DNA of 64,000 bases from the IMG/VR virus record IMGVR_UViG_3300013383_000014, positions 101,724 to 165,723 of that record; one strand, given 5' to 3'. Below the pieces are notes generated by a model. The model had not been told where the DNA came from, did no database searches, and saw only the letters and a list, made by a program, of their open reading frames with translations. Shown here piece after piece: positions 14,294-47,253 of the stretch (positions within the stretch are counted from its first letter, which is position 1; the number at the start of each line of letters is the position of its first letter). Source of the DNA: a virus. Taxonomy: Duplodnaviria; Caudoviricetes. The translations under genes were made by a program, and so were the position numbers.

Positions 14294-14347
14294 TAGGTAT
14301 AGTTCATAGGTATATTAGGTATATTAAGTATATTAAGTATAGTTAGT
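14294..14347. repeat. AT-rich 9-bp repeats TA(G/A)GTATA(T/G)
   Basis: Copies at 14294, 14307, 14316, 14325 and 14334. Confidence 0.9.
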
Positions 14348-14451
14348 GGTCAATTTATTTCTTGATGTGGTCATTTTATTTTTTTATCTGGTCATTTTAT
14401 TTCGCGATATGGTCAATTTATTACGTGATGTGGTCATTTTATTACAGCACT
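14347..14451. repeat. Five iteron-like 21-bp direct repeats (core TGGTCAWTTTATT)
   Basis: Cores start at 14347, 14368, 14389, 14410 and 14431, an exact 21-bp period. Confidence 0.95.
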
Positions 14452-14467
14452 TTTTTATGTTTTTAGT

Positions 14468-14499
14468 ATTGCATATTAAAAATTTTTATATTATATTTG
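14468..14499 (+). promoter_or_regulatory. Bacteroidetes housekeeping-sigma promoter
   Basis: aTTG-N20-TATATTTG upstream of the HTH gene. Confidence 0.75.
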
Positions 14500-14543
14500 C
14501 ATTATAGAAAAGATTAATGAATTTATAAAAATTTTTTGAAAAA

Positions 14544-15275
14544 ATGCAACACACTGAAGTTCCACGAATATTAGACTCAATGAAATTAGCGCACACTTTA
14601 GAGCATGGCGATAAAATTATTTATGCCGCAATTAGAACGTACATGAATGAAGATACAAGAGAATGTTTCCCCGCCGTTTCGACAATTGCTGAATTATTGC
14701 AGTGTAGTACAGGAAAAATAAAACTAGCAATTGGAAGATTAATTGAAGTTGGAGTTGTACAAAAATCGAATGATGGCAGAAAAAACCATTATTATTTCCC
14801 GAGAAGTGACTGGGACAAACAATTTGAAATGTTCACAGAAGCTTTTTTAAGACTAGATATGCCATTGAATATAAAAGAATATTATATGGACATACAGCCT
14901 TTTTTATACGGAAAAGATACTGGAGTGGGGAAATGCTCGTTTACAAACACAGAACTATCCCGAAGAACGGGGTGAACAACACAATCGATTAAGAAATATA
15001 ACACTTGGCTTATCGAGCACGGATTTTTGGAAGAGCAAGCTACCGAAAAGAAAGATGAGTCCGGTCTGCCAGTTATACAAAAAAATTTCAATTTAGCTGG
15101 ACTGCAACAAGCCGCTTTGTGGGCAAAAGCTGTTACACAGCAAGTAGTTAAAAACACGTCTGATATAGAGGAAATTAAGTCTGAAAATGAGGATTTGAAA
15201 CGACGGATTGCTGCATTGGAAAGAGAAGCTGCTCTGAATAGAAATAGAGTTATAGAAAAGGAATACAAACTATAA
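14544..15275 (+). CDS. Winged-HTH (HTH_36/replication-initiator-like) DNA-binding protein (243 aa)
   Basis: IY.AI..YMN..T.ECFP..STIA..L.CS...I...I..L...G pattern; a second HTH spans TGA 14973; C-terminal coiled coil. Confidence 0.75.
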
Positions 15276-15276
15276 T

Positions 15277-15305
15277 AAAAAAGCCCCGCTATAACAGCAA
15301 GGGCT
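15277..15305 (-). terminator. Terminator (T-tract on - strand)
   Basis: A6 followed by an agccccgct..agcaagggct hairpin. Confidence 0.65.
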
Positions 15306-15372
15306 AGCAATACTTAAAAATGTTTAACGTCGTTTGCCGTAGCAGCGGTCACGCTCTTTTATTATTTTATTG
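15277..15372 (-). ncRNA. Candidate ~95-nt small RNA or micropeptide transcript
   Basis: Bounded by a - strand promoter (15378-15408) and a - strand terminator; no ATG-initiated ORF. Confidence 0.35.
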
Positions 15373-15377
15373 CAATA

Positions 15378-15408
15378 CAAAGATAAGATAATATTTTTAA
15401 AAAGCAAA
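15378..15408 (-). promoter_or_regulatory. Bacteroidetes promoter, leftward
   Basis: Reverse complement reads TTTG-N19-TATCTTTG. Confidence 0.7.
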
Positions 15409-15419
15409 CACAAAATATA

Positions 15420-15451
15420 TTTGCATATATCGAATTATTTTATTACTTTTG
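15420..15451 (+). promoter_or_regulatory. Bacteroidetes promoter for the endonuclease gene
   Basis: TTTG-N20-TACTTTTG, 20 nt before ATG 15472. Confidence 0.75.
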
Positions 15452-15471
15452 CCACAAAAGTAATATGATCT

Positions 15472-16416
15472 ATGAGAAAATTAACACAAGAAAAATTTAT
15501 AGAAAAATGTAGAGAAATTCACAAGGACAGATACGACTATAGTAAGACTATTTACTCTGGGCAAAGAAATAAAGTAATAATAACATGCAAAACACATGGA
15601 GATTTTATTCAACGAGCCGGCGCTCATTTACAAGGACAAAACTGTCCAAAATGTGCTTTAGAAAATAAAGTTCTTCCAAAGAGAATCTGAAACCCAAACG
15701 CGGAAGCCCGAAAAGAAAAATTGTTAAATCAATTTGCTAAAATCCATAATGATAAGTACATCTATAAAATAGATGGAACTGAACATATGCAAGATTGTAT
15801 AATGATTGTGTGTAAAAAACATAACTATAAATATAGACAACGGCTTACGAACCATCTTCGTGGTCATGGATGTCCAATTTGTTGTGGGAAATCAAAGCCT
15901 TTTACAACAGAGGAATTTATAATAAAGGCGAGGGAGATACATGGAAACCTTTATAGCTACGATAAAGTAGAGTATACTGATAAGGAAACACCAGTTATAA
16001 TAACATGCAAGACCCACGGTGACTTTTCGCAAAAACCACATAATCATATATGCGGAGGTGGTTGTCCATTTTGTAAAAACTGAAAAATGCAACAAAAAAT
16101 TTTTGAAAAACTAAAAGAACAATTTCCAAATGAACCGTGGATTTGGGAATATACAACGACTTGGTTGGGCTTTCAAAGAGTGGATATCTTTAATCCAAGA
16201 TTGAATCTTGCAATTGAATATAACGGAAGACAACATTATGAACCAGTTGAATTTTTTGGCGGAGAAATAGAATTTGAAAAAAGAAAGTTATTGGATAATA
16301 AGAAGAAAGATTTACTTGCAGAACATAATTGTACTTTATATATTATAAAATACGACGAATATGATGAGGCAAGTTTTTTTAAAAATATAAAAACACTTAT
16401 AGAAAATGAAAATTAA
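15472..16416 (+). CDS. Zn-repeat PD-(D/E)XK (Vsr-like) putative homing endonuclease (314 aa, 2 TGA)
   Basis: Three FI....IH...Y.Y...C..H.....H..G..CP.C repeats plus C-terminal QRVDIF..LAIEYNGRQHY; fragments in frame across TGA 15688 and 16081. Confidence 0.85.
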
Positions 16417-16720
16417 GAAATTTGATGTAAAGTACATGCAACAGGGTGGGCCTGTACCAGCAGAGGCACAGGGAGCTCCAGCACAAGAGGTGCAGCAAGC
16501 ACAAAGTGATGAACAGATGATGCAACAACTCTCACAAGTAGCACAACAAATTATCCAGGAGATGGGTCCAGATGCAGCAGCAATGCTCGCTCAGATTATT
16601 ATGGAAATGCTCCAGGGAGCAGCACAGGAAGTTGGTGCACAACCACAAGAAGTAGGTTTCCAGCGCAAGGGAGGCAAGATCTGTAAGAAGGCCTGCGGTG
16701 GAGCTAAGATTAGAAAGTAA
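16406..16720 (+). CDS. Small Gln/Ala-rich putative virion protein
   Basis: Intact ORF with KYMQQGG and QRKGGKI motifs; followed by a terminator. Confidence 0.7.
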   Translation: MKIKKFDVKYMQQGGPVPAEAQGAPAQEVQQAQSDEQMMQQLSQVAQQIIQEMGPDAAAMLAQIIMEMLQGAAQEVGAQPQEVGFQRKGGKICKKACGGAKIRK

Positions 16721-16737
16721 ATAAAGATTTCTTTTAT

Positions 16738-16773
16738 AAGGAGGGGTGGAATAAAAACTGCTCCTCCTTTTTT
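16738..16773 (+). terminator. Rho-independent terminator
   Basis: aaggaggggtgg / ctgctcctcctt stem plus T-tract. Confidence 0.75.
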
Positions 16774-16788
16774 AATAAATGATAATAT

Positions 16789-19700
16789 ATGTCACAAGTA
16801 ATATATAGAAGTCAAATAAAGAAATACCAGAATGCTCCAGGCCCTCTGCCTAAAAATGAAACAGAGGAACAAAAAAAGAAGCGACTGGAAGAAGAGGCAA
16901 AAAAGAAGGCTGCCGCTAGTGAAGAAAACAAAACTCAAGTTACTCCGGCCCAGTCTAGTACAACTGACACAAAAACAGGAGCCGCACCTAGTACAACAAC
17001 TACAGGAACATCTAGCGCTAAGTCCGTTGTAACAACCACTCCTGCTACTAAGCCTGCATCTACTACAAGTGCAGCTCCAGCAGATCCTGCTGAATCGGCA
17101 TTGGTAAACAATGGCTTTTTTGAGTTAAATGGAGTTCGTGTTACCGGCGCTAGAGCAATACAGGAAATAAATAAAAGGTTTAGGAACTCTTCTAATAAAA
17201 GAGCACAAACTGATGCATTAAATGCAATAAATAATGGCGGCGGAATTCGTGTTGCAGGAAATAAAGTTTGGTTTTTTGATAAAGATGGGAACGATATCAC
17301 GCATTCAATTATAACTCCAAAAACACTTCCAAAAAGTCGTTTCGCCAGAAATTGGGCAGCTACTTTTTCTACACAAAAAGACGCAGATCTTGATAGTTAT
17401 AATACTCTTATATCTGGTGAAATTACGCCAGATGCTCCTGAAAAAGAACTCGGCCCAGTAAAGAAATCACTCTTACGTGGAAGCGGGTGGTTTAGCTATG
17501 ATAAAGACAAAGATGGAAAATCGATATATAATAAAGGAGCGCAGTCCAATCAACAAATGTACGACACAATGCGTGACGCTGTTGGTGCGATATGAGCTGA
17601 TGATTTTAATAAAGACAATTATAATGATGTCGATAAATGAAATTTTGACTACATCCGTGCATTAAAAGATAATTTTAATGGAACCGAGGGTTTTAATAAT
17701 TATCTGATTGATCTGGAAAATAGACTGGCTGCTGGGGAAGAAGTAAAGGATAATGACAAACGAATTCTTAAATTGTTTGGATATGAGCCAGATGCAACAG
17801 GTACAGAATCTGGAAGTAGTTCTGGCACAGGTAGCACTACAAAAGAATACTGGACTCCGGATGCTTTTAAAGGAAATGCCGATGCTTATAAAAAGGCTGG
17901 GCTTACTTTTACAAAAGGTGAAAATGGTGAATACACTCTTACTGGAGGGATTTTTGGTAATGGAGATGTAGATTGGGCACTTTTTGGAAATAATCTTTTT
18001 AAAGGCACACAATACGAAAATGGATTTTATCACAAAGGTCGTTTATACACTAGGGATGAAGTTGCTGCAGATGATGCATTAGGTACGATATTTCGTCCAT
18101 TCTTAACTGCTAGTGCAAATGGGGCAAATTGAAATACTACTTACGACAATATGAACGCCTCTGGAGTTCGTTTTCAGGGTGATAGAATTTGAGCAGGAAA
18201 GGATAATAAGTACTATGGTGGTTATACCATGTACGACCCAGAAAGCGTTTATGCAAGAGAATATGATAGTGAGTTTAGAAAAAAAAACGGATTGGCAGGA
18301 AAGGGAGTAAAAGACATAACTGGTGAATATAACTTAGGCGCAGGAAAGAAATTATTCGCTTATACGGATGGGCAAACAAATTATGGTGAGCCAATTATAC
18401 GTTATATGATGTTTGATAATGGTGCTGTTACAAAGCTGAACAACCTAGACGCGTACGCTAGTGCTAGAAAACAAGCAGCCTATCAAACTGCTACACCAAT
18501 TGATTGAGGTGAAATAGATGCGAATGGTTATGCTCCTTACAAAGAGTTTACTACACAAGCTCCTGGAAAAGCAAGGCAAAATAACGCATTGATGTATAAT
18601 CCAACTACTGGAAGATATAGCATTATAACAAATTATGATCCGAATGCGCAAGGAGCCAAAGGATATGATATAGATCAGAGTTGGAAAGATTATATACTCG
18701 AAAATATTAAAAATGGAATCTGAAATATTGATTTTAATGGGCAATTGAGTCAGTTTGGAAAGCGCAGGGTAGATCCACAAACAAGAGCAAACAATCCAGA
18801 ATCGCGTGGCCGGGAGGCTATTTCTGGACTAGCGTTTAAAAAACAAGGAGGAAAAATTGATTGAAATAGGCTCCAAAAGCTCCAAACTGGAGGGGCTTTC
18901 GCTGGTCCGGTGGCTGAGGCAAAAATTACAAAAACTAGTGATCTTAAACACGATATTTCCAAAGCGCACACTATGGATGAGGGTCTTACAGAATCTGAAA
19001 AACTTAGGATTGGCGCTGCTATCACTGACTTAGGAGGAACAATCGTATCTCTTATCCCGGGCGCCTCTACTGCCGGCGCAGTAACTGGAGCTCTTGCTAC
19101 AACAGCTCAATTACGGGCCGATCGATTGGCACAAAAAGAGGGTCGTGACGTTGGGAATTACTGGGGTCGTGCAATTGCAAATTATGCGATGGACGCACTT
19201 ACAGCAGCTCCTATTGCTGGTGCCGCTGCAAAGATTTTCAAAGTTGGAAAAGGACTCCAAAAGATTGCTCCGTTACTTGGAAAAGCAATGCGTTTCGCCG
19301 CTCCTGTTCTTGGCGCTGCTGGTCTTGCAAACGCACAAGCAGCTCTTGATAAAATCGTTAAGGGAGAGTGAAGCAAACTTACCTCCAATGATCTTACTGA
19401 TCTTTTTAATGGACTTTCTGCTGCTACTGGTGGTGGAGCCGTTGTTAGACAGGGAATTAAAGACGCTCGTGCAATTACAAATCTTGCAGATACAGCACAA
19501 ACTGCTGCAAAAGATGCAAAGGCAATTAAAAATGGAAAGGTAGGAGACGTCCTTTTTGATAAAAAGACTGGGGAAATACTTGAAACTCTTGATAAAACAA
19601 AAACAAAGAAAGAGGCTCTTAGCAAAATCAAGGACATGGTAAAAGAGCAAAATAGTGCTCTTGATGGAGAAGCTCTTGATAAAGCAGCACAGGATGTTTT

Positions 19701-21534
19701 TGACGCTCTTGGTCTTAAAGAGACGGCTGGAAAGAAACACTGGAAAAGAAATGGATTTTTAAATTGAAGTCGCGAAGCTGGTGATGCTCGTTTCGAGTTA
19801 GGAGACAGCCTTAAATTACCAGAAAACACATCGATATGGGGCGAAATGCTGAATCCGAAAAAAGTTTGAATGCGTGACGAAAATCTTGCTAGAGCTGTTT
19901 CTGGGCTTTCTGCAGAGGAAATAAATGCTGCAAATAAAGCAGTTAGAACTAGACAATACAATCCAAACAGTGAAACTAGCTCTATGGACTTGTTTGATTG
20001 GTTACGCGCTCGTGACACCGCACAAGCTATTTCTAGGATGACAGTTAACAATCCGCAAGTTTTCACAAATGCTACTTTTGGTAACGCGCCAGTACAGGAT
20101 AGGAGACGTTGATTAGGCCCTCTGACTGCAAATGCTTTTGGGCCACGTGGATATAGGATGGTTACACCGGCTACTCCAGCAGCAACAACTCCAGCGCCAG
20201 TTGTTCCAGACAGTCGTTTATCTGCTAAAAGATTGATTGATTTTAGAAACGACCTGATTGCCCGCCAAGCATCCAGCTACCCAGCGGACGCAAGCTCGGC
20301 TCGTTATAGTCTTGAGAACATATTCGCACAGCCTGAAGCAAAAAAGTTTATGCAAGAACATCCAGAGGCGGCCGCGAACGCAATACGCCGAATTATTGCA
20401 CAATGGTATGGAAAAGGCACGCCATTATATACAGGAACAACCTACTTATTGAATAATAGTACTACTGGAGAAATTGGTAATTTTATGCGAGGAAAAGGAA
20501 TCAAATTCAAACAAGGTGGTGAAATACCGAAATTCCAAGACGGTGGTGAAAATATACATGAAAGAGGAAAAAAGCCAAAGTTTAATATTCCGGGAATGAT
20601 GGACTTGACGTCTGCAATAGTACAATCTACGGCAATTGGAAAGGCTTATGACGACAAGAGAGAAGCGTTTAAATTGGCTGGACTTGCAACGAAGACATCA
20701 CCAAGAATACAAGGAACTCGTTTTGATGTCTCCCCAATTGATAGACAAGTAAATGAAGCAGTTGAGCCTTACAGGCAGGTACAGTTCAATTCTTCTGATA
20801 ACAGAGAAAATATGGCTGGAGAACTTCAGAGAGCAAAAGCAATTTCTGATATACATGAACGCGCAGGAGAGCAGAAAACACAAGCAATCAACCAGTTTAA
20901 CGCAACTGAAGTACAAAGAGCAAATGCGCAAGCTTCACAAGATGCAGAAGTTGCAGATGCAAATAGAGCATTATCTGCACAGGTGGCCGCATCTCTTAAA
21001 GAGGCTGATGCTGCTGAAAGAAATGAAAAGTGGGCACAGGTTTGAAATACTTATAGCAAGCAGTTTAGACAGAATGCGCGTGATCTGCAGAATAAAAAGG
21101 CACAATCACAATACGAGTCCGATCTGCAAGATGCAGAGAACGAGTACAATGATGCTATTAAAATGGAGTTTGCTGGATTACGTGGCGAATACGAAAATGA
21201 CCCAAATAAAGGGAGCATGTCTTTTGAATCTTGGGTTGCTTCTGATGTAAATCGACTTAATAGATATAATAAAATTAAAGAAGGCGATGGCGTTAGAGCC
21301 GCTACAAATAGATACAGAAATAAGAGGCTTGGCTTGCAAAATAATTACTACTCGACTATATATGGACCAATCGTTGGATATAAATCCGGAGGAAAAGTAG
21401 AAAAAACTGTATCAAAGAAGCAAAAACTCGACGTTAACGATAGGCTTGTCTTACAAGGTGATAAAGCAGCAAAACGTGCTGTCTTACAAGCGAGCAACAA
21501 TCTGCATAAAATGCTGATGAAATTAATGAAATAA
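16789..21534 (+). CDS. Large putative virion cargo/ejection protein (1581 aa)
   Basis: Seven track fragments in one frame; gaps contain only TGA; S/T/A-rich N-terminal linker, Gly/Ala hydrophobic helices, C-terminal coiled coil. Confidence 0.8.
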
Positions 21535-21537
21535 TAT

Positions 21538-23430
21538 ATGAAAATAAAGAAATTTGCAGGCGGAGGTATTGCTTACCTTCCTACAACAAATAGAGTCGCA
21601 GAAGAGACCGTAAAAACAACTACGGCCTCTTCTGAGGATTCTTCAAAGAAAAACAAAACAATAGATAAATTATTCGATCTCGTTAAAGAAAAAGGGCTTG
21701 ACTCTGATGTCGCCAAGTTCTTAGATGCAGTTGATATAAAGCTCCAAATGGGACTTAACCCAGACGGAGAAAATCTTACACAACGTGATCTGGTACAATT
21801 AGCTAGAATGGCATCCTCCGTTACTACAAATTACGAACGTTACAACACAGCAGTTAAAAACTTAACGGAGCAGAATGCAGAGGCAGATCTTGCGATTGAT
21901 GATAGAGGCCGAATATATTGCATGAATACAGATAGTGGAAAAGTTGAAGCACTGACTCCAGATAAAATAAAAGAACAGGAAGGAAAAATTGCTCCTCTTA
22001 CAAATGCAGAGTTATTAAATCTTAGGCGTAGCAGACCCGATCTTGCATATAACACAAAGATTATTGATGATATAAATAACGCAGTAGGCATTGATACAAT
22101 CACAAAATATCTGCAAGATACTATTTCTAAGTTTAAAACAAGTACAGTAGAAGGGTACTCTGACAAACAACAGAATGCAATCCAATCTGGATTACAAGAT
22201 CTTATTGGAGGAGATTTTGACACAAAGCAATTACAGCTTATACAGGCGGGTCCAGATGGAGTTTACAAAATTAAAAATCAGGACACAATTGCTGATAAAA
22301 ATATATATACTGCTCTTAACTACTTGATGAGTACTCTGCCAAACAAAATGAAAAGGAAACTTGAAGCAATTTCTTTTGCAGAGGGATATGATCCAAAAGC
22401 AATGATGGCTACAATGCTTGTTGCAAATACTGAAAGATCTATTTCTGTAGACTGAGAAGGACAGGTTGAAAAAGATGGCAAGCTTAGTAAAACTGCGGCT
22501 AGCGAAAAAACCGGAGCAGAAGTGCAACATACACTTGGCGAATCTTACGTTGATGGGGCTAACTTACCGCCTGAAGAACGAATATCAATTTCTCCAGCTG
22601 ACTCAAATACATCTCTAGTTGTTTCTGGGCAAAACGTTGGCCCAATTAGAAAAGCAAATGGACAAAACCCAGGAGACATAATGCCAATAGCAAGTGTTGC
22701 ACAAGTTCTTGAAGACGCTTACGCAATTAGGGAAGTGACAAATGGTACGGTTGTTTTTGGCGATCAATTAATTTCTCAAAAAGATCTGGGCGGACTTGTT
22801 TATGATGGTTCAAATATGCACAGAGTTGTTATGCCTTCAAAAATAGTTAACGGCAGAGATATTGTTCCAGATTATGAATTGCAAGATAAACTTGATGGAA
22901 TTATTACCGCAGCCGAGGAACAAGGAATGGATGATGCAACAATACAAAGATATGTAGCACAAGCATGCCCTGGAGCTACATATGATAGTGCTCGTGGTAT
23001 AATTATATTGCCAAAAGATAAGCAGCATGTTTTCTTAACTTTTGGTGCAGTTGGGTCTCCAGACTTAATTAATTTTAATAAATCAAAATATCTTATTAGA
23101 GATGATGATAATGGTTATGTAACGAAAGATGTATACCGAGACGCCGCGATGTATGGTTATGCAAACTCACAAAATGGGCAAAAAAGAAGAGAGCGTTCTG
23201 CGGGATCTGCAAAACAAGGATGATGGAGCAGAACATTTACTGGAACAGATCTTTATAGGGGAAATGTGTTTATTCCAATTTCAAGCAATGTTATGGGGTC
23301 GGCAATGTATAATCAAGGGTATATTCCAAAGTCTGCATATCATAATATAACTGGCCAGACTGTAGAAAGCAATAGAAAAGAACAAGTATCAAACGAATTT
23401 GCATCTGGGCAAAGACAAACTAATTGGTAG
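21538..23430 (+). CDS. Putative virion cargo protein (630 aa)
   Basis: Starts MKIKKFAGGG; TGA 22453 and 23221 read through; ends TAG. Confidence 0.8.
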
Positions 23431-23431
23431 T

Positions 23432-31816: not shown

Positions 31817-31831
31817 ATTAAATAATTTTTT

Positions 31832-34800: not shown

Positions 34801-37800
34801 AGCAAATCAAATAAAACGCTCGGTTATTTTTGGATCGACAATACACCCATTTGCTCAAAATATAAAAGATCAAAATGGATATTTTACTGGTGTGACAGAT
34901 CAGTTAGAGATTGCTGTTATTGATGATGAGGCCGGAGACATATATACAATTAATGGAGTTTCATCTACGGTTGATTCTCAGGATGGTTCAGGACATTGCA
35001 CCGCGCTTGAAGCGTACTTAGAAAACCAATCTTTAGTTGATGCTGCGGTTGGGGTAAATAAGAAAACAATTGTCCATGATATTGACCCAGAAACAGGAGT
35101 GCCACTTCTTCTTAAATGGGCTGTATATGCTTTAACAAATGATGTTAGACGAATGGGCTATGATTCAAAATCGAACGTTGAGTCGCTTGTTAAAAAAATG
35201 TATAGCAAACATAAATTTAATATAGATCTCAATCTAGATAAAGATTTTGATGAATATAAAAGAAATGGTGGACAGCTTTATACTAAAGATATAATTGCTG
35301 GTGGAGAACCAAAACTTGTTACAAAAATTATTAAAAACTCCGACGGCTCTTTTCAACGCGCATATGAAGACGGGACTTTAAGTAGAAAATACTATTGTAA
35401 CACACTTTATGAAATTGATCAATTGTTTGGTGGAGCTTGAACATATAATAAAAACGAGAAAGGCAAATTTATACCAAATGAAGAAAGTGTCTCACTACTC
35501 GCATCAGCGGCAATTAAATACAATTTACGAGACAAACAAGTTGCGTATGCAGTGAATACTAGTGCTTGTAAGGTTGGTGCTACAAACGTTAATTCTAGCG
35601 ACGTATTAAAAGATGAAAATGAGTTACGGACATTTAAAGTACACTCAAAATATGCTGGAGTTATGATGAATGCTGACCACGAGCTTGATATAGCGGAAGT
35701 TACTGAAATGTCACAGATGATTTCTGCGCTTATTGAGGATGGACATTATACTAAATTTGTAACCGATATTTACAAAAATATTGGTAATATTGCACTGAAT
35801 AATGATAAAATCAATAAAATTATTTCTATTGTTAAATCTAATGATCCAAACAAAAAACAGAAAATGATGGAAATAATTGGCAAATCATTAATTGCTAGTT
35901 TTAGCTCCGGAGCAAAAGATACTATTGGTTTAGCTCAAGCTTTTATTAAAAAAGCATCACAAGAGTTTCAACGAGCAAAATCGCGGGGCGAAGACTACGA
36001 ATTTACAATCCCGATTAGTGATCCAACAATTTATGGAGCATTTGTTTCAGATGTCGTCTCGTCTATTAATAAGGCCGGTATCCGTAGAAAATACGAGGGT
36101 TTTGCCGGAGTGCTGAATCCGTCATATAACATGGTTCAATACTACTCTGATGGAAATAGAAATATGCTATTTAGCGAATTTAATGATTATTGCCAAGAAC
36201 AATTAATGAAAGCCGGAATTAGCCCAGCGTTGATAACATCATCCTGAGTTAATTTTGCTAGAAATAATCCTATTATTAATGGAAAAGTCTCGCCGTTATT
36301 GAGGGAAATAAATAGAAATGAAATTGATTTTGAGGATACAGTTGTTATAATTAGGCCAGATCAAAGTATTATTAAATATTATATAAAAGACGCCCCAACA
36401 TATGAACTTGTAAAACACCAACTCGACTTTACCGGATGTTCACTTTATATAGATACAGCAGAAGCTAGAAATTTACGTGGCACTGGAACATACTTTAATG
36501 TTAGTGATGGGGCCGGAAACAAAATTGGAACATTCAATATATTTGATCTTGACTCCGTTAGAGCTGCACAATTCATAAATGAACTTGGAAATGATAGAAA
36601 ACTTAATGGAGATGCAACGCACGACTTTAAAGTAAATTTAATTAACAAAGTCCTAGCTGAAAATCCAAATGCTTACGGCGTGACGGATCTTGATAAATGT
36701 AACAATATTACACAAGATATACTTGAAATATTTGATGAAAAGGGAGAAATACCTTGACAAACTAGTTTTGGGGAAAATCTTGGACAGAAATATTTTGTTG
36801 ATAGTTATTATGTTCGTCCAGCAGAAATAATTGCAGGACGTTACCAAATGGAAAAACTTGGTTTAGGTAAAAACGACCATATTTATGATGTTACAGGTCC
36901 AGAGTTCTTCCTTAAAAAGCTTCAAACAACATACGGATTTCCAAAATTAAATGGGGATACTAGTGGCGCATATGATAAAATATTATACCATAATAGACAA
37001 CCAGTTTTAGTTAAAATCGATCCGGATACATTTTCTAAAAATAATTTAGAATTACTTGAAAATAATGATATTAATATCGTTGGAGAGGACATTAAAAATG
37101 GATCGGAAGTTGTTATAACTACAAATAATCCAGATAAATTTAAGTTTTCAACACTGACAGATAAAGTAAATAAATATTTATTAATAACAGTAGCGTCTGA
37201 AGAGGATTTTAATGAACTCTATGAATCGCAATATTTTGATGATGTATATAGAAATAATATAGATTTATATAATGAGGACGGCTTGTTTGATTTACTTTCA
37301 AATAATAACACACTTGTTTATAACGGAAATTATATAAATAAAAATCAATTTGATTTACTCAATTCCGACGAAAAATATAAAGTGCTTTTAGACAACGACA
37401 ATCTTCGTGTTAATAAGCAATTAGAAATTGCAGCTAAAACAAGATATGAAGCGTTTAAAAGGGGAATTGAGTTGATTGGAGCACGTATTCCAACTCAAGC
37501 AATGCAGTCATTTATGCCTTTCAGAGTGATTGCATTTTCAAATTGTGACGAAAATGCTGTTTATGTACCTGTTGCAAATACGGCAATTGAAGGCTCAGAC
37601 TATGATATTGATAAGCTCTATTTACTTGCGGCTTCAATTTTAAAGAACGGAACTGTTTCTGCGGGAAGTAGTTTACAGAAATATGTCGGATTCGATGTTG
37701 CATCAAAATTATATACTCCAAGAGGTAATAATATAGTAGCAGGTAACACTGGAGTTAAAGTAAATGGAACGTTGCTAACTACATTTACAGAGGATCCGAA

Positions 37801-40800
37801 TAATTGAAGTGAAATAACTAAATCAAACTTTATTTCAATTGTAAATAAAATAGGAAATTCAGTAGATGACGATAGTGATATTTCTGTTAATTTTGAAAAT
37901 ACTTTAAATTTGCCAGAACAAAAATTTCAAAAGCAAGTTAGGAAGTTTTTGTCAATGGTAAATAAGCACTCAAAAACCCCATCATATATAAGAGATTCTA
38001 TGGAAGCTTTGAAAAGCAAAGTTTTTTCTGGAATTTTCCAAGTAACAACGTTTGCTCAAAACCAAATGAAAGCTCAAATTATGGTGGATGCTTGTACAGG
38101 AGAACTAAAACGACGTGCGGCAGATACAGTTGCTGGTAGTGCAGAGAAATTAATTACACCAGACAATCCAGCAAGTAAATATATTATGCAAGAACAATGT
38201 ATGCTAGGAAAAGCGGTAGTTGGTATTGGTGCGGTTTCGTTGAAGACATACTTTATTTTGTCAACAATGAATCAACAAAAAGCGGAACGTTGTACTGATT
38301 TAATTAACGCTGGTAATTATGAGTTGGCAGAGAATGTGCTAAAAACAATGGTCATTAATGGGCCGTACGGCATAACAACAATTGCTAACACAAATTTAAG
38401 ACAAATACAAAGAGCTCTTAATAGGGCGCCGGAAACACAGGAAACAAATAGAATGTGATCTGTTTTAAATGCTTTAATTAAAAATTCACAATTTATTAGT
38501 GCACCCGAATTTTTGTCTGGAATTATTTCACTAGCAGCAGATAACGCAAAAGATTTGGCACTGCCTAAATTAAATGCAACGTCTGACCTTGTTGATATAT
38601 ACACAACATCCGCAATGCTTGGAATACCTTTCCAGGAAACGGCTAGAATTATGACATCTGATATATTTAACTGAATGACAAAAGCTGGAGCTAATGATAT
38701 TTTTGATGATTACACAGATGGAAACAAGGTGAAGAAAATGGTGAAATTTATTCTTTTCCAGAATTTTGGAAAATTAAATATGGGACAAATTTATCAAGTT
38801 ATTAATAAATATAATAATTGAGCACCAAAACACGGAAAACCTGTTATTAATACAAACAACGTTGAATTACCTGTAATTCTAAGTAATATTTTAAACATAT
38901 CTAATATAAAAGAATTTTTATCTGCGCAAGATGGCATGATACAAAACGCGGCAGAATATATGTCAGAGGAGGCCCAGATAGCATATGATAGATTAGTACA
39001 AGATGCTTCAGACCAAGGACTACCTATACCAGAACCGGATATGTTAAAACAAGATTGTTATAATGCATATAGAGTATTTGAGAATTATGAACAAATGCTA
39101 TCAATTGGTTATGATGTAGAGGATATTGAAATATTAAATAAACTTCTTAACATTGTTACAGAAATGACAACATTGGGGCAACAGGGTTCTATTAACCAAG
39201 GAATGAAAACAAATACAAATGATTTTATTTCTTTTAGTAGGAAAATTTCAGATATGATAAACGATAAAATTGATGCACTAAATAAAGCTTTGAAAAAGGA
39301 CGCAGCAAAGAGGGACGTTAAATTTAATCCATATCCACAATTTAATATGACTAAATATCTGTTAGACCCAGAGTATAGAGAAAATGAAATTAACTTTTAT
39401 GAGGACGCACTAAAAAGCGGATTTAACATTTTGGAAGCACTTGCATATTCTCCGAATTTCTTTAACATGTCTCAACTCGTGCCATTTACAGAAGAAATGC
39501 TAAAGAACTCATATGCGTATCGAGTAATTGAACAAGTTAGCAACGAGTTACTTGATAAGAAAATGTTATATAGTATTTCTCAAAATGACGCAAAACAAAT
39601 TTCAAATACTGTGTTTGATGCAATGATTTATAGTTTTCTTATAAATGGCGATTTTGAAATGGACTTAACTCAGATTGACTCTGATTTTAGTATTTATACT
39701 CCTGATAAAATGTTGAGTGAAACATCTAGAAAGAAACTAACTCTAAAAACCCCAGAGGAAATTGCATCATTTAAACATTTGATGGAAACAGTAATTATTC
39801 CAAAACTTCGCTCGGATTCTAGATATTCTGATAATCAATTTATTAGAGATTTGGGATTTCAGGAAGATACTGCTGGTAAAACAAAACTCGCATTACCGAT
39901 ACAGATGATGAATGTGGACTCTGATACGGGAACGCAGTCTAGATATTCTCGTTACTTGGATGATTTTAATAAACTCTGTAAAGATTCAATTTATGGCCAA
40001 AATATCGGTTCGTTGATGTTTTTGTATAACTTAATTGTTAATAAAAACGGATACGGGCAAAATTCTTTAACTAGAATATTTGAAGATCTAATTGATAGTA
40101 AAAATCAACCAGAATCAATACAAGCATACTATAAATGAATTGGAACTTTAGATAAGAGTGGTCAATCTATAGATCCAAATCTGAGTGCAGATATTTTATA
40201 TAGGATAAAGAACTACTCTCGTGGAACAAAAATTCAAACAAAAAATCTTATACAAAAAGTTAACTTAAACTCGGACTTTACGTTTGAATTACCTTATACA
40301 GCAAAATTAAACCAAGCAAAATGGCTTAACAACCAGCCTTATTTGGCCAATGTTACTACAGTTGGGAACATTGATCCGGTTGAGGCGATTACCGCGTTGG
40401 GGGCTACAATTAATAATATAAAACCTGGCACAATTACATTTATAACGGACGCTATAGTAAAAGAACAAGGTTTACCAAAAGAAGCTGGTTTTGTTATGAA
40501 TGGAAAGATTTATATAAATAAATCAAGGTTTAATAATGTTGCAGATGCAATTGGGGTAGAAGCACATGAGCTTTCCCATTTAGTTTTGGCCGCAATGAAA
40601 GTAAATCAGGATTATAATTTTAGAAATGCTTTTTATAAATTATTAGCGTCAGTGAAGAACGATCCAGACTACAATAAATATATGGAAGCATATCCAGATT
40701 TAGTTGGTTCAGACTTAGATGAGGAGATTGTTGCATCAAAAATTGGAAAACTTATTGCAAATCAAATTAGTAATAATTCAGATTTGGAGTTACAAATAGT

Positions 40801-41041
40801 AAATGGGGAAATGTTGCTTGATGCCTTTAATGTATTGTTTAATAATAAGAATATTACGTTAAGGGACATTGTTAATAGTAACACAGAGTATCTTTTGGAG
40901 AATTTTGCTAAAAATATATTTAGTTTTACAAATGAAATAAATGAGGATTTTATTAAAAAAGATCAGCGTATTTCTGGTATTAAAACTAGATTATTTAATA
41001 GTACAAACTCAAATTGGAATTTAAAACAGGATTGTAAATAA
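31832..41041 (+). CDS. Virion RNA polymerase with C-terminal zincin-like domain (3069 aa)
   Basis: RIPTQ..GSDYDIDK catalytic DxDxD (37598-37612); QDG and DNAK motifs; HELSH..EE (40565-40579); 12 in-frame TGA by my count and no TAA/TAG. Confidence 0.92.
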
Positions 41042-44000
41042 TGAAAGTATTACAAAATGGATGTAAATGAAAACTTACTTGAGATGGTAAGTTAATTGAA
41101 ACAACAATTGGTGGGGGTCTAGATGACGAGGGTCTAGACTCCTTCCTTTTAAGAAATTCAAATAATAAAGTTTTTGATAAAGTAAATAATATATTTTATT
41201 CAAAAACAATGCAAGATCAAGTAGATGATAAAATTAAAGAAATTATTGCTGATAGAAAAAGTGGGGCAATTGAATATGCACATAAATTCCAAAACGAGGA
41301 CGGCGAACCAGAAGTAGAAATGATTTTAAAAATTCCAGATTCGATTGGTACAACTCGTTTTTTATCTGAAGTAAATTTAGAAAATGGGAAACCCCTAGTT
41401 ACTAAATTTGATCAAGAAGACTGAAAATCAGATAAAATTAAAACATATAATAGTTCTACTCCAGTTTTAAATATATTAGACCAAGACATGACTAAGTTTG
41501 CATTAGATAATAATAAAACTCCAGAAGAAATGATTAAAATGGAAATGGAGTCTTGGCCTAAATTAACAGAAACAGGAACAGAGGTCCATAAGATATTTGA
41601 GGATATTTTTAGCGATAAAACTCCAATTAAGCCAAAATCATTGTCAGACACAGTGTTCAATAGTCTTGTTGCGCAAGTAAATACATTTAAAGATTCATTA
41701 AAAAAGAAGTATCCAAATTGTCGTTTTTATACAGAATTGGGAATTAAGTCAAAAAACCTCGCTCCAGATATGCAGGAGCTTCTGAATAATGCAGGACTTA
41801 CGTCTATAAATGGTGTTATCGACCTTTTGGTTATTGACGAAAATGGAAATGGGCACGTTTATGATTATAAAGTAACTCGTAAAGCAATCGCACCAACAGG
41901 AGACGACATAAACACTTGATGAAAAACCACGGGAAATAAAGCAATTCAAACAAGGCATTTGTGGCCTTCAACAAAGAAACTGGCTGCAGAATACCAATTA
42001 GAATTATATAAAAATATGCTTAGTGCATATGGAATTAACACAATTGACACAAACGTTGTTCCGATCAAAATTAATTTTGAGTACGATAATTCTAACAACC
42101 CATTTGAAGTAACTGGAGTTAAAGACATTAATGTGCCTACCGAGTCTGGTATAATTAAAAATCCTGCAAAATGAAACGGTGGAGAACATGCAAAACGAAT
42201 TAAAAAAATGTTTACAACTACGGCTACAATTGATCCCGACGAAGTAACTAATCTTTCTAAAGTTTGGGATAGTTTTTTTCCACAAAATAGTATTATTGCC
42301 AAAAGAGAAACGGAAAGAAGTAATGTCGATTTCTATAAAAAGAACGATTCCTATGTGCACAAGGTACTACCAGGTGAACGTTATTATGGAGAACCAGGAC
42401 ATGAGTATAGACTTTCCTTAAAAGGAGTCAATTCTAAATATGTGTACTGCGATGAAGCTGATCTTGATAATAAATTAACAGAATATATAAACACATTAGC
42501 TATATCTAGAGCTGATTTTAGTGTAAATATTGCAGAAGCAATCGAGAATGTTAAATCTGGGTCTGATGAAAGCGAGTTGTTTAATTTGGTTGGAGAAAAG
42601 CAACAAAACTTTTTTCGCACTTCAATAGAAAAATATTTACGTCCGGAATGGCAATTTGTTCCAAATCCAGCGATGAATTCCCTTGGTTTACTTGTTTTTA
42701 AAAATGGAAATCGTTGTGAAATAGTAACACTAACTGACAAGGCGCTTCGAGTAACACAAAATCTTGGGGAAGGAAAGTCTATTTTAGGGAAAACAGTTGA
42801 TGATAAACACGTTGATGCCAGAGAAATACTACCTGCAATGCAGGGTAATATGGAGCTAATAAAAGCAATGATTTATATTTCCCAGCACGAGGATGTTTTT
42901 GATGGCTTAAAAATCACTGGCATTAAAGTACTCAATCCAAAGAATGGAACTGAAATGAGTGTCCTTTTATCACAATTAATTAATAATTACAATGCGCTTG
43001 TTGCGGAAAATAAAGCGTCTGGAGCAAAACGAATCAGTCAGCGTCTTTTTGCGTCGGATTTTGAAGCAATTGTAAAAAATGCAGAAGATTATGTAAATGG
43101 GCTAGAACAATTACTTGAAAATGGTGGTCACGGAGCAAATGACAATTATTATACTACAGAATGGTTTTCAAACGCAATAGATTTATTTAAAAAACATTAT
43201 GGAAATCAAATGGATTTTAATGCTGGCTATCAAAATACTGCAATTTGAAATGCGTATCAAAAATTATATGATGGGCTCATTTTGTCACAAGGATATAAAA
43301 CACACGAAGAAACCGACAAGGAGGATGTTATTTCTGGAAAGTTTTATGAATTAAATGGATTGCTTATTTCATCTCCACAATTATCCGCTTCTTCAAATAT
43401 ACGTGAATTAGGTCAAGCAATTGATGATTATGCAATGGAGGTTAGAAAGCGTTGTTTTGAGATGGGAATGCCTTTTGATTTAGCTCTTAGAAAGTTCTAT
43501 GAAAAGCACGGTACTGGCGCAAAGGTTTTTGATATATTTTATGCCGATAGAGAAAACCTTATTTTAAAAGATCCAGATTCTCCGGAATTTGCTGGTGATC
43601 AAGAAGCAAAAGAAGTACTTAATTTGTTTTTAAGAACACTTGCCAAATTGCGGGATCCAAATATAGAAACAGAAGAAGACTACAAACGCGCAAAACAACG
43701 GGAGGATTATTATGCAATCCCGTTACTCGAAGGAACATTTACACGCCAAGCAAAGAATATTGGATTTTTAAAAGCAGTTAAAAATAAATTTAAAGAAAAC
43801 TGAACTACGACCAAGAATCTTTTTATGGGAGAGGAGGTTGAATATGGTATGGATAATTATATATCCGAAAACCAGGAAGTTTATAACAAACTTAAATATG
43901 ACAACATGCTTGCTAGGCAAGATAGGCTCGTGAAATACGGTGGTGCCGGAATGATGGAAACGGACCTTGAATTAATAATGCATGCGGCATTGGTAGCTTT

Positions 44001-45636
44001 TAATCGCTCAAATGTTAGTAGAAAAGTACTCCCAATTATTACTGGCCTTAAAATGGGTCTTGAATATCGAGACGCGCATGGATCTTTTGAAAATAAAGGA
44101 AAGCGCCAGGATATGGCAAACATTAGAAAACGTTTTGACCAAATTGTAAAAAGTAAACTTTATGGAGAATCGATTGTCCCAGAGAAAGCACAAGGCTTGC
44201 TAAAGTTTATTAACTTAGTTAAATCGTTTTTTACAACAATGACCCTTTCTTTAAATAGTAGATCTTTCTTACGAGAAACTTTATCTGGTATTTACAATGG
44301 AGTTAGCCGAGCTGGAGTAAAAATGTACCCAGGAATTGACGAAAAACACTATATTGAAGGACTAACTTACGTTATGCAAGAATGCCCTAAAAATTTTAGT
44401 GGAGTTAGTCTTTTACAACAACTAAATGCGGTTTATGGAATGGCAAACCAGTCGCTTAACCAGTTGCAGGGATATAAAGTTAATTGGGCGCATATTAGCC
44501 ATTGGGGAAAAGACACAGCATTTTTGACGGCCTCTTCCCCAGACTTCTTGCATAGAATGGCATTACTTATTGCCAAAATGAAAAGTGACGGTTGTTTTGA
44601 TGCTTATTCGCTTGATGAAAATGGATTGTTAAAATACGACTTTAAAAAGGATAGGCGATTTGAACATTTCGTTAATGGAGAAACTACAAATGAGAATTAT
44701 TTAAAAGAAAAGTCATTATATTTAACAATGATCGATGAGTTCAATAAAACCGGCTTTAAAAATCCAGACGGAACACAACTAAATGCAGAGAATATGGATG
44801 CATTACCACAGGCATATACACGAATTGAGGGGCAGAGTATTAAAAACTTTGCAGATTTATTATATGGCCATTATGATGATGAATCGAAGTCGTTGTTATG
44901 TGACACTTTCTTAGGTTCTATTTTCTTGCAGTACAAGACATTTTTAACAGCAAAAGTTGAGCAGCTCACAATGACGAAAGGAGTTTATAATACTGCCCAA
45001 TTAAAACAACAGTTTGATAAAGACGGAAATCCATTATATGTTAAATATTACTGGGACGAAGATAACAAACCACATAAAGACACAATTTTACAAAGCGAAT
45101 ATGAAGCACTTTCTGATGAAGAAAAAAAGGCATGTAGGTTGTTGTTTGCTTATGAAGGTTCTCCAATGCAAGGTATTTTCCAGGAGTCCATGAATGTTTA
45201 TAAAACATTATTAACAATGAATCCAGAAAAGATTAAAAAGGTATGGAGTGACCAAACAACGAGAGCAATGTTTATGTTGCAAATACATGATTTGTGGTTC
45301 TTAGGGTTGATGATATTCCTAGTCACTTATGTGTTTGGTACAATGGAAGACTTGGATGATCCACTCAACCAGAAGGCTGTATATAGTGCAATGCGTAAAG
45401 CTGGACCAGTTGAAAGTCTTGCATATAATGTACTTGCTGGATCTATGGCAGATTTTTCGTTGCCAAATATAATTAACTCGTTTACAGATAAGCCGCCAGT
45501 AGTATCTGCCCTCTCAAAATTTGCTACAACTTCAATGAATTTAATTACCGGTGATTCGTCCGTTACAAATTGATTAACACGAAATATTGGTGCAATTAGA
45601 GATCTTGAGGGACTTACAAATATGATTGATGAATAA
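41041..45636 (+). CDS. Giant putative virion protein with N-terminal RecB-type PD-(D/E)XK nuclease domain (1531 aa)
   Basis: GTEVH..E..GVIDLL..DYK..QLELY motif series; one frame through TGA; hydrophobic helix near the C-terminus; TAA 45634-45636. Confidence 0.85.
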
Positions 45637-45639
45637 TTA

Positions 45640-45685
45640 AAAAAATAACCCCTACACAACCGAAAGGTCATGTAGGGGTTTTATT
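45640..45685. terminator. Bidirectional terminator at the convergence of the two gene blocks
   Basis: aacccctaca / tgtaggggtt stem with inner acc-GAAA-ggt; A-run before and T-run after. Confidence 0.85.
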
Positions 45686-45731
45686 ATATGATATTGTTCC
45701 AAATAAAATTCACAATTTTGTGAAAAAATAG

Positions 45732-45764
45732 CTACTACAATAGCTAAAACCTCTATTGTAGTAG
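45732..45764. repeat. Perfect 12-bp inverted repeat
   Basis: ctactacaatag-N9-ctattgtagtag. Confidence 0.85.
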
Positions 45765-45919
45765 TCAAAAGTTGTTCTGTAGGAAACTAGTGTTTCTCTG
45801 TAACTAACTAATATATAATGTATTAACCCTATTTTTAACAATAATCTCTTCTTATCTAATTATTAGTTTTGTAAAATATTTTTATAAATACAAAATAAAT
45901 AAACAATTATTTTTTATTA

Positions 45920-46015
45920 TGAAAAAATGTGCGCACTCTGCGCATATATTTTCATAATAGTGCGCATATATTTTCAACTAACTATACTTAATATATACTT
46001 AATAACTATACTTAA
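45920..46015. repeat. Orphan iteron-like repeats plus AT-rich TATACTTAA repeats
   Basis: tgcgcatatattttca at 45939 and 45961 (22-bp period); inverted copy with 2 mismatches at 45920-45935; then three tatacttaa. Confidence 0.85.
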
Positions 46016-46030
46016 ATAAATTTCAAAAGA

Positions 46031-46070
46031 AAAAATAAGGGGCGTGTAGCATAAAACTACACACCCCTAT
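46031..46070 (-). terminator. Terminator of the RepL-like gene
   Basis: aggggcgtgtag / ctacacacccct stem preceded by an A-run. Confidence 0.75.
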
Positions 46071-46073
46071 ATA

Positions 46074-46535
46074 TTATTCTTCTGTTGTTTCATCTTCCGT
46101 GTAAGTCAAGATAACTTTTCTAGTTTTTGGTAATTCATTAATTTTCCCCTTATAAAAATACTTCGGATTCAAATAATATGTCGATCTATGTTTTGGATCT
46201 TTTATGATTGTTTGTGATTTTGCCAGCCCTGAAATACAGTTTCTAATCGTTTGTCTTTTTATTCCGAGATCATTTTCAATTTTATCAAAAAGTAAATCTC
46301 CTACAACTATACAATTCCCAGTCATTCCGTCATCTGGGTAAGACGAAAATTTTCACAACCAAGCTAACACTCGCAACTCCGTCTGCGTTTTTATATTCAT
46401 TATTCCGGATAAATCGTTCAGATATAAATAAATAAAATTATCTTTTGTGTACTTTCTCTCTGCCACGATTGTAGTGGTTTCTTCTAAAATTTCTCCAGTG
46501 TTGGAGTCTACTACTGTTTTCTTTTGCTCTTTCAT
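46074..46535 (-). CDS. RepL-like (plasmid replication protein family) wHTH protein (153 aa)
   Basis: VDSNTGEI N-terminus, F..LY, HTH and YYLNPKYFYKG; the two track ORFs join across TGA 46353-46355. Confidence 0.75.
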
Positions 46536-46571
46536 AATTTTTATACTTTTGTTAACTACATTTTTATACTG

Positions 46572-46603
46572 CAAATATAGTTATATTTTTTATAAAAAGC
46601 AAG
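46572..46603 (-). promoter_or_regulatory. Bacteroidetes promoter for the RepL-like gene
   Basis: Reverse complement cTTG-N20-TATATTTG. Confidence 0.7.
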
Positions 46604-46620: not shown

Positions 46621-46694
46621 GAGTATAAAGATTGTATCAATGGAGTATAAAAGTAGTGTCAATGGAGTATAAATATTATATAACTGGAGTATAA
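46621..46694. repeat. Four iteron-like 22-bp repeats (core (TG)GAGTATAA)
   Basis: GAGTATAA at 46621, 46643, 46665 and 46687. Confidence 0.9.
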
Positions 46695-46763
46695 CTTTTC
46701 ACATCAACGTGTTATATATCAGGAACTTAACTATGTTTTTCCTATATTTATATTATATATAAC

Positions 46764-47053: not shown

Positions 47054-47253
47054 TAGTTATATTTCTTTTTAAAATAATTATATGCCCATTTATATAACTT
47101 ACAATTTCGGGCAAGATCTAATGTTCTATTAAATTCACCCTGTGACGCATCGTATAAAGCAAATGCAAACACAAAGAAAGCCACTCCTACAAATCCAAAT
47201 AAGAGAGTTGCTACTAGCACATAAAGGAGTATTCTAATTAAGACGATCATCAT
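47053..47253 (-). CDS. Small membrane protein
   Basis: N-terminal hydrophobic stretch and basic C-terminus. Confidence 0.7.
   Translation of the reverse strand: MMIVLIRILLYVLVATLLFGFVGVAFFVFAFALYDASQGEFNRTLDLARNCKLYKWAYNYFKKKYN

Follow-up and report, generated by a model that had tools for sequence, protein, structure and literature searches.

The stretch of DNA analysed here (the window) comprises 64,000 nucleotides, bases 101724-165723 of a 165,723-bp virus record (Caudoviricetes; IMG/VR record IMGVR_UViG_3300013383_000014), and carries two copies of a 19-mer that belong to arrays of 9-bp repeats, each placed at the head of a small cassette. These cassettes are probably iteron-type modules of replication origin and initiator, in which the 9-mers provide a constant element, comparable to a DNA unwinding element (DUE) or a helicase-loading site, beside iterons that are private to each cassette. 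A complete module would consist of two to six (AT)TAAGTATAG(TT) units (typically three), three to five iterons, a host-type promoter and a gene for a protein of 225-260 amino acids (aa), predicted to have two winged-helix domains like those of RepE and pi, a coiled coil and an aromatic C-terminal tail.

The first-pass annotation of the window had pointed to the 19-mer at 14329-14347 on the plus strand and, as its reverse complement, at 45977-45995, and both copies were confirmed. With up to three mismatches allowed, the window has four matches against 0.09 expected, a number that no shuffled sequence reached. The 19-mer turned out to be the last one and a half units plus the junction of a 9-mer array with the unit given above, and the two inexact matches come from units that overlap within this array. 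The weaker variants that had been proposed at 45802-45816 and 46724-46734 have no match to the 19-mer within three mismatches and are at best single degenerate units. The five units of the 14.3-kb array begin at 14294, 14307, 14316, 14325 and 14334. Over the whole 165.7-kb genome there are five arrays (at least three units, each with one mismatch at most), against none in 40 Markov-1 simulations, and all five (A to E, Table 1) adjoin iterons of a different sequence. The arrays are also local minima of duplex stability, within the least stable 1-5% of the 30-bp segments of the genome. Since the last unit and the following TTAG are conserved across the whole family, the 19-mer is identical in D and E for this reason, and not by a recent duplication. 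Nor is there anything special in the inverted pair that D and E form around the block with the RNA polymerase (RNAP) gene, as had been suggested, because three more copies in the orientation of D are found upstream of the window.

Table 1. Coordinates of the 9-mer arrays in the genome and of the features of cassettes D and E and their surroundings in the window.
Feature	Genome position	Window position	Strand	Description
Array A	47093-47135		same orientation as D	at least three 9-mer units; outside the window
Array B	48189-48222		same orientation as D	at least three 9-mer units; outside the window
Array C	53236-53285		same orientation as D	at least three 9-mer units; outside the window
Array D	116017-116070	14294-14347	+	
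D constant element		14294-14347	+	five units (TAGGTATAG, TAGGTATAT twice, TAAGTATAT, TAAGTATAG) and the TTAGT junction; holds the 19-mer at 14329-14347
D iterons		14345-14449	+	five 21-bp direct repeats, core TGGTCAWTTTATT
D promoter region, AT-rich		14450-14543	+	element TATATTTG at 14492-14499, read from the sequence
D gene (P0001)		14544-15275	+	predicted 243-aa RepE-like initiator: two winged-helix domains, C-terminal coiled coil, Y-x-L tail
Hairpin terminator		45647-45680		closes the plus-strand arm; left edge of the gene-less E zone
E iterons		45920-45976	-	two direct TGCGCA-core repeats and one inverted copy, ~21-22 bp apart
Array E	147700-147737	45977-46014	-	
E constant element		45977-46014	-	three units (TAAGTATAG, TAAGTATAT, TAAGTATAG), then TTAGT; holds the reverse-complement 19-mer at 45977-45995
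Hairpin terminator		46038-46068		right edge of the E zone; end of the RepL-like gene
RepL-like gene		46074-46574	-	166 aa under code 4; scores 27 bits for PF05732 (cutoff 20.3)
22-bp repeat array		46621-46694	-	upstream of the RepL-like gene; TRF, period 22, 3.4 copies

Cassettes A to D are complete (at 47.1, 48.2, 53.2 and 116.0 kb of the genome) and share a single order, 9-mers, four or five iterons of 20-21 bp, an AT-rich promoter with the Bacteroidota-type sequence TAnnTTTG and a gene of 234-245 aa, while each has an iteron sequence of its own. Iteron origins have at least three direct, helix-phased repeats of ~17-23 bp beside the rep gene, and D has five of them (21 bp) and A-C have 4-5 (20-21 bp). 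The two copies of the 19-mer do abut unrelated repeats of 21/22 bp, as had been noticed, the five iterons in the case of D and the TGCGCA-core repeats in that of E. The distance from the last 9-mer unit to the first iteron is 0-6 bp in four of the five cassettes of this genome and 14 bp in B. In D the putative promoter contains TATATTTG, which we take to be a Bacteroidota-type -7 element by the TTTG/TAnnTTTG consensus. Every complete cassette is self-contained, with its promoter and gene, plus a terminator where examined.

The proteins of the four cassettes are paralogues, with 30-57% identity to P0001, the product of D, and all of them pass the Pfam family HTH_36 (PF13730) with 48-63 bits against a cutoff of 25 (48 bits for P0001). 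The matches in PHROG are to replication-initiation, O-like and DnaD-like families, via the N-terminal winged helix-turn-helix (wHTH) only; Phage_rep_O of Pfam stayed below its cutoff (best 21.2 bits against 28.7, in P0004 only), and a sequence search of the PDB recovered only generic wHTH regulators, with E > 0.004. The AlphaFold2 model of P0001 (pLDDT, the predicted local distance difference test, 86.8) has two winged-helix domains in residues 1-186 and a long C-terminal helix at 190-233. Its top Foldseek matches are RepE54 of mini-F, including the complexes of Rep with single-stranded DUE DNA 8ac8 and 8aan, and pi of R6K, all with probability 1.0 and TM (template-modelling score) 0.45-0.54. 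With VIA-align, over ~175-183 residues within 1-186, Z was 8.6 for pi, 8.4 for RepE and 8.0 for domains 2-3 of RctB, and 5.7 for the next unrelated fold. A Z of ~8 is moderate, and the weight of the comparison comes rather from the fact that 44 top rows in succession are iteron initiators, matching across both predicted domains.

Another feature that may tie these proteins to replication is their C-terminal end. The pattern [YF]x[FLM] closes only seven of the 152 open reading frames (ORFs): the four Reps, the C-terminal part of a DnaB-like helicase, a superfamily 2 helicase and a 106-aa ORF beside PolA. Aromatic tails are widespread in the Rep-like family, and phage replisome proteins use aromatic C-terminal tails for docking; by analogy, [YF]-x-[FLM] may be a shared replisome docking motif that links the Reps to the replication machinery. 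The DnaB-like gene itself (genome 13.5-15.8 kb, outside the window; L202:575-2812) appears to be split by an ORF for a LAGLIDADG endonuclease into an N-terminal part with DnaB_C and a C-terminal part that ends in EINYSF, and it could contain an intein or an inserted homing element.

The arrangement is by no means restricted to this gut phage and recurs in many relatives that have not been cultured. Among 37 unique cassettes, pooled from public viral contigs and contigs of metagenome-assembled genomes, 35 have kept the array, with two to six units located 100-290 bp upstream of the start codon; typically three units are present, at spacings of 13-16 bp and then 9-13 bp. All nine core positions and the two T's after them have a high information content, with the reservation that the core was in part ascertained through the pattern used in the motif scan. 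Iterons start 0-6 bp past the last unit in most cassettes and have a period of 20-23 bp, mostly 21 bp, i.e., two helical turns. A scan of IMG/VR based on the protein gave 13 loci (L005-L017), and all nine unique strong members have the 9-mer array directly upstream of their own, different iterons. To limit ascertainment bias, five further representatives of 50% clusters were chosen by protein alone; the canonical array was present in four and a single degenerate unit in the fifth. Scanning IMG/VR for the motif instead (two units 1-9 nt apart) produced 119 hits, and for 25 of these a family gene of like orientation lies downstream (E 1e-27 to 1e-88); among the remaining ones several are truncated copies or other iteron-bearing loci and others unrelated tandem repeats. 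A stricter motif, searched in one genome for each of 185,579 species, gave 11 hits, and the contexts inspected look mobile or phage-like. The association of the motif with repeats and helix-turn-helix (HTH) genes is therefore found in other genomes as well. The Rep-like proteins make up a large family, with 765 clusters at 90% identity and 207 at 50% (E <= 1e-30), and full-length relatives are absent from the GenBank phage and PLSDB plasmid records. A tblastn search of phages and plasmids with the Rep gave only distant matches, in the N-terminal wHTH, to replication proteins of Bacillus and Vibrio, and neither cassette region was matched in GenBank phages by megablast.

It might be thought that the 9-mers, being AT-rich, built on a 9-bp unit and located upstream of genes, are promoters of a phage RNAP (as the first-pass annotation had considered) or of some other kind, DnaA boxes of the host, or just a low-complexity match, but all this is extremely improbable. 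There are only five sites in the genome, all of them at cassette heads, and a host-type promoter comes downstream of each. Past the iterons, the promoters are of Bacteroidota type in some contigs and of sigma-70 type (TTGnnn/TATAAT) in others with the 9-mer unchanged, which also argues against a reader specific to one host lineage. By inspection, TAAGTATAG agrees with the DnaA-box consensus TTATCCACA, or with its complement, at five of nine positions; no DnaA boxes were recognized, this 9-mer being all that was compared with the consensus and the rest of the cassettes not having been searched. Besides, if the 9-mers were boxes of host DnaA one would not expect the paired motif only 11 times in the species genomes, seven of them with a family gene. 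The shuffles and simulations exclude chance, the motif being far more frequent than an AT-rich background would provide.

The strongest evidence that each Rep would read its own iterons, and that the 9-mers would have a role independent of this specificity, comes from a natural chimera. L005 and L006, from different metagenomes, are 100% identical in nucleotides as far as the final base of the 9-mer array, fall to random-level identity over the iterons, the promoter and codons 1 to ~84, rise to 62-80% over codons ~84-170 (the second winged-helix domain, WH2) and are ~100% identical from about codon 180 on. In protein terms the identity is 47% in the first winged-helix domain (WH1), 68% in WH2 and 100% in the coiled coil. 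To judge by these alignments, the exchanged unit is formed by the iterons, the promoter and both winged-helix domains, and the constant part by the 9-mer array together with the coiled coil and tail. The blastn coordinates had suggested a swap of WH1 only, an interpretation rejected when the nucleotide windows showed that WH2 had been exchanged too; for this reason we have also dropped the idea of a conserved WH2 that reads the 9-mer. Along similar lines, the core TGGTCAWTTTATT of the D iterons recurs in L005, whose protein is 77% identical, and among 17 cassettes iteron cores are common only where WH1 identity reaches at least 0.79. Iterons thus co-vary with the DNA-binding domains of the initiators, both in the chimera and in the shared cores. 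A constant element paired with interchangeable repeats that different HTH/Rep proteins would read, as the first-pass annotation had it, is supported by the five arrays of this genome, by the same layout in dozens of contigs and by the breakpoint of the chimera at the end of the array.

This breakpoint lends itself to another interpretation, in which the array is the target of a site-specific recombination that mobilizes the cassettes. The left breakpoint falls exactly at the array end and the cassettes are found at varying positions among genomes. However, the right one lies within the gene, at the boundary between WH2 and coiled coil, as in homologous exchange between conserved flanks, no recombinase was noted beside the cassettes examined, and the array is fixed in orientation and position relative to the iterons. 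We find recombination at the 9-mers very improbable.

Cassette E is of a different kind. No rep gene follows its iterons, and tblastn found no gene remnant there. It can be aligned, one unit after another, to the heads of gene-bearing, complete cassettes (L075, L143 and L147) over the 9-mers, the iterons with TGCGCA core and the inverted copy, then TTTTCATAAT, and diverges beyond, so that on this alignment E is best described as a gene-less cassette head; the iterons of L204, with a TGCGCAC core, are of the same type. The inverted TGCGCA copy looks like an operator. Under the replication reading, which we hold probable as a whole, E would be a relic or a copy acting only in cis. The zone that it occupies has no genes and lies between two terminators at a convergent switch. 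Next to it the RepL-like gene has a promoter of its own and is without a 9-mer array. Past the E head (45690-45830, minus strand) there is a 16-mer, TTAGTTAGTTACAGAG, then a hairpin with a 12-bp stem and then a T-run; the same 16-mer occupies the same relative place after the gene-less heads of a phage group (L048/L189/L190/L199). We considered the 16-mer TTAGTTAGTTACARAG downstream of E as a general element and rejected it, as it recurs in the L048 group but the other 26 viral hits are mostly in unrelated coding contexts. A small RNA at the hairpin of ~45.70-45.77 kb was likewise discarded, with nothing near gathering scores in an Rfam search of the E zone.

The L048 group, G002 and L148 also have gene-less or decayed heads. 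In G002, a relative recoded at TAG, a second 9-mer array (135158-135183; L162) comes directly after the single rep gene, without clear iterons and with an unrelated gene next. In L148 (contig of L016) a complete cassette with other specificity has immediately upstream of it an isolated remnant (286-305) of the inverted operator of E type, GTGCGCACATATTTTCATAAT, which suggests cassette replacement and decay in place. It is conceivable that such heads and the additional Rep-iteron pairs are devices of incompatibility or competition, which keep out or titrate the initiators that co-infecting relatives bring, or serve to escape titration, and that this drives fast specificity swapping around a constant core. 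Specificity does diversify fast, to judge by the high WH1 identity at which cores are still common, a natural swap exists, heads that are gene-less or reduced to remnants are found repeatedly (E, the L048 group, the second head of G002, the L148 remnant), and the gene cognate to E-type iterons appears only in other phages (L075, L143, L147, L204). But the proposal is purely inferential, and relics of cassette turnover explain the gene-less heads equally well; we regard it as quite unlikely.

Position in the genome gives some further support to the replication modules. The genes form two arms, one on the plus strand from 47.3 to 147.4 kb and the other on the minus strand, which runs from 147.8 kb across the ends of the record as far as 46.8 kb. 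Cumulative GC skew is lowest at 44-47 kb and highest at 146-147 kb. Cassettes A and B (47.1 and 48.2 kb) coincide with the divergent strand switch and with the skew minimum, and for this reason they are the likeliest working origin. There are two complete relatives to compare: the skew minimum of G003 is at 135 kb and its cassettes at 133-135 kb, and the minimum of G002 is at 141 kb, with the cassettes at 134 kb, again at a major divergent strand switch. In this phage (G000) the cassettes are at 47 kb, with the minimum at 44-47 kb, so that in the three genomes cassettes are at, or within ~7 kb of, the minimum, which is supportive only.

There is an alternative view of the cassettes as autoregulated modules of transcription factors, with the iterons as operators for the wHTH and the 9-mers as a shared upstream activator or architectural site. 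Self-contained units (promoter, gene and, where examined, terminator) would suit it, and so would the inverted half-iteron at the promoter of the E-type cassette and the name of MarR-type regulators given to relatives by the JGI (Joint Genome Institute); D sits among virion genes, and several copies per genome fit regulators better than origins. However, the arrangement of two winged helices points to iteron initiators in particular, and regulators with a single one score much lower; the PHROG matches are to replication-initiation families, the cassettes are at or near GC-skew minima, and the C-terminal tail is otherwise present only on replication proteins. Autoregulation is also part of the Rep model and does not discriminate. 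All in all, we consider this view unlikely.

The layout of short repeats in an AT-rich stretch, iterons, promoter and a two-winged-helix Rep is that of the iteron origins F ori2, P1 oriR, pPS10 and RK2 (PMC4980987, PMC4081077). Since classical iteron replicons have the same layout and fold, the system is not new in kind, and the suggestion of the first-pass annotation that it was one not yet described does not hold in that sense. Two-winged-helix Reps such as TrfA and RepE bind the DUE repeats as single-stranded DNA (ssDNA) in a sequence-specific manner, i.e., the four 13-mers of RK2 and the 8-nt repeats of F, and these repeats are essential for opening and helicase loading (PMC4081077, PMC10602881, PMC4980987). 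Like mini-F ori2/RepE (and also P1 oriR/RepA, pPS10 RepA and R6K pi), the phage cassettes have short repeats in a stretch that would melt easily, 4-5 iterons that recur every two helical turns, a promoter accompanied by an inverted half-iteron (in the E-type cassette) and a rep gene, and the phage Rep, predicted to have two winged-helix domains, has its best structural matches in RepE54 and pi. In contrast to that class, the phage Reps lack the Rep_3 signature (HTH_36 is found instead) and have an additional C-terminal coiled coil and Y-x-F/L tail, no DnaA boxes were recognized in the cassettes within the limits of the 9-mer comparison, and four to five modules are found in a 166-kb genome of lytic type rather than a single plasmid replicon. 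Besides, the phage short repeat is constant across many specificities of Rep and iteron. A few sequence-specific short repeats beside iterons are likewise found in RK2 oriV/TrfA (13-mers) and F oriS (8-mers), but the plasmid DUE repeats are specific to each replicon, whereas the phage units, of 9-13 nt with conserved G residues (G4 and G9 of the 9-mer), are common to Reps with unrelated iterons, and their binding by Rep is putative. RctB of Vibrio cholerae chromosome 2 has the same two-winged-helix initiator arrangement in its domains 2-3 and binds several classes of repeats, but it serves a chromosomal replicon, is much larger, with four domains, and has no sequence relationship to the phage Reps.

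The other precedent for modular specificity is found in phages. In the O proteins of lambdoid phages the iteron-binding N-terminal part co-varies with the iterons, the C-terminal part that contacts the replisome is constant, and natural hybrids exist; the ori of lambda is inside the O gene and there is one per genome. The cassettes described here resemble them in this modularity, but have their iterons upstream of the gene beside a conserved external repeat, and their match to Phage_rep_O is sub-cutoff. In the literature searched, no published description was found of the family, of the motif, of a short repeat common to many initiator specificities, of several modules per phage genome, or of a swap of sites together with DNA-binding domains.

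By what is known from the plasmids, and if the cassettes are replication modules, the two winged-helix domains would bind the private iterons of the module, as fold and covariation suggest, and the 9-mer array, presumably easy to melt, would be the element of unwinding or helicase entry, by analogy with the 13-mers of RK2 and the 8-mers of F. The 9-mer might be engaged as ssDNA by a conserved surface of the Rep or, alternatively, by the phage replisome through the coiled coil and the Y-x-F/L tail. Redundancy, cassette turnover and competition of incompatibility type are candidates to explain the presence of four modules plus a head in one phage.

Several points weigh against a role in replication. 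Origin function, from binding and melting to replication itself and the choice of cassette, is something we infer. Four to five origins in a single phage answer no obvious need; D is located within the arm of virion genes and E at the GC-skew maximum, and, since skew is confounded by the direction of transcription, position in the genome only supports the argument. The promoter side of the iterons is as AT-rich and unstable as the 9-mers, and melting could take place there. As to the proteins, their likeness to RepE is one of predicted fold, with ~11% identity, moderate TM and Z ~8; none of the four paralogues matched Rep_3 of Pfam (PF01051) at E <= 0.1, HTH_36 being the best family. Three of the four rep genes require read-through of TGA, with one in-frame TGA each in A, C and D and none in B; in P0001 this is codon 144 (14973-14975), read as W. 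Across cassettes iteron similarity is weakly correlated with WH1 identity (partial rho 0.18, p = 0.03), in a test limited by the AT-rich background and by saturation. Finally, three more distant members keep the iterons with other short repeats (e.g., two ATATACGTTA units), and two elements of Bacillaceae type (L133, a Neobacillus niacini contig, and L049) have 9-mers and iterons without an adjacent family gene. The latter show that the motif extends beyond the phage family studied. In both of them, two or three TAAGTATAGTTA units abut 4-5 iterons, small genes of 81-84 aa come next with no HTH_36 Rep, and the genes alongside gave no Rep-like match in Pfam.

The genome that harbours these cassettes reads through TGA, as indicated by giant ORFs that are open when TGA is translated as W and by a tRNA with anticodon TCA at ~28.25 kb, on which the full-length proteins of A, C and D would rely; in A the TGA is located just before the coiled coil. 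At 23399-45636 of the window three consecutive ORFs of 2,805, 3,069 and 1,531 aa are open in this code, and others upstream have 1,090-1,581 aa. PHROG gave no match for the tested pieces of the giant ORFs and none to capsid, terminase or virion-RNAP hallmarks for ten large ORFs, and of 20 large ORFs it left most without annotation. For membership in Crassvirales, which the first-pass annotation assumed, the giant ORFs (1,090-3,069 aa), the two gene arms and the tRNA with anticodon TCA are circumstantial evidence. The last ~77 bases of the record duplicate its start (1-80 and 165,640-165,723), and given this overlap the nominally linear assembly is probably circular or terminally redundant.

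The origins and initiators of large gut phages with recoded stop codons are essentially uncharacterised, and the cassettes are candidates that can be cloned, with cis sites and trans factor in ~1 kb each, while the conserved 9-mer can be searched in metagenomes to find candidate origins. An unlikely but suggestive extension would be that recoded gut phages maintain a toolkit of swappable private origins on a universal TAAGTATAG loading pad, read by the half of the Rep with the coiled coil and Y-x-F tail or by the replisome, and that the extra modules and gene-less heads such as E are weapons of incompatibility or decoys against co-infecting relatives; origin specificity would then be subject to an arms race comparable to plasmid incompatibility, but within the genomes of virulent phages. 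If the cassettes are functional, they would supply orthogonal replicon parts for poorly tractable hosts and could explain persistence and competition in co-infection. The chimera, for its part, suggests that the specificity of these initiators evolves by joint exchange of the DNA-binding half and its sites around a constant core.

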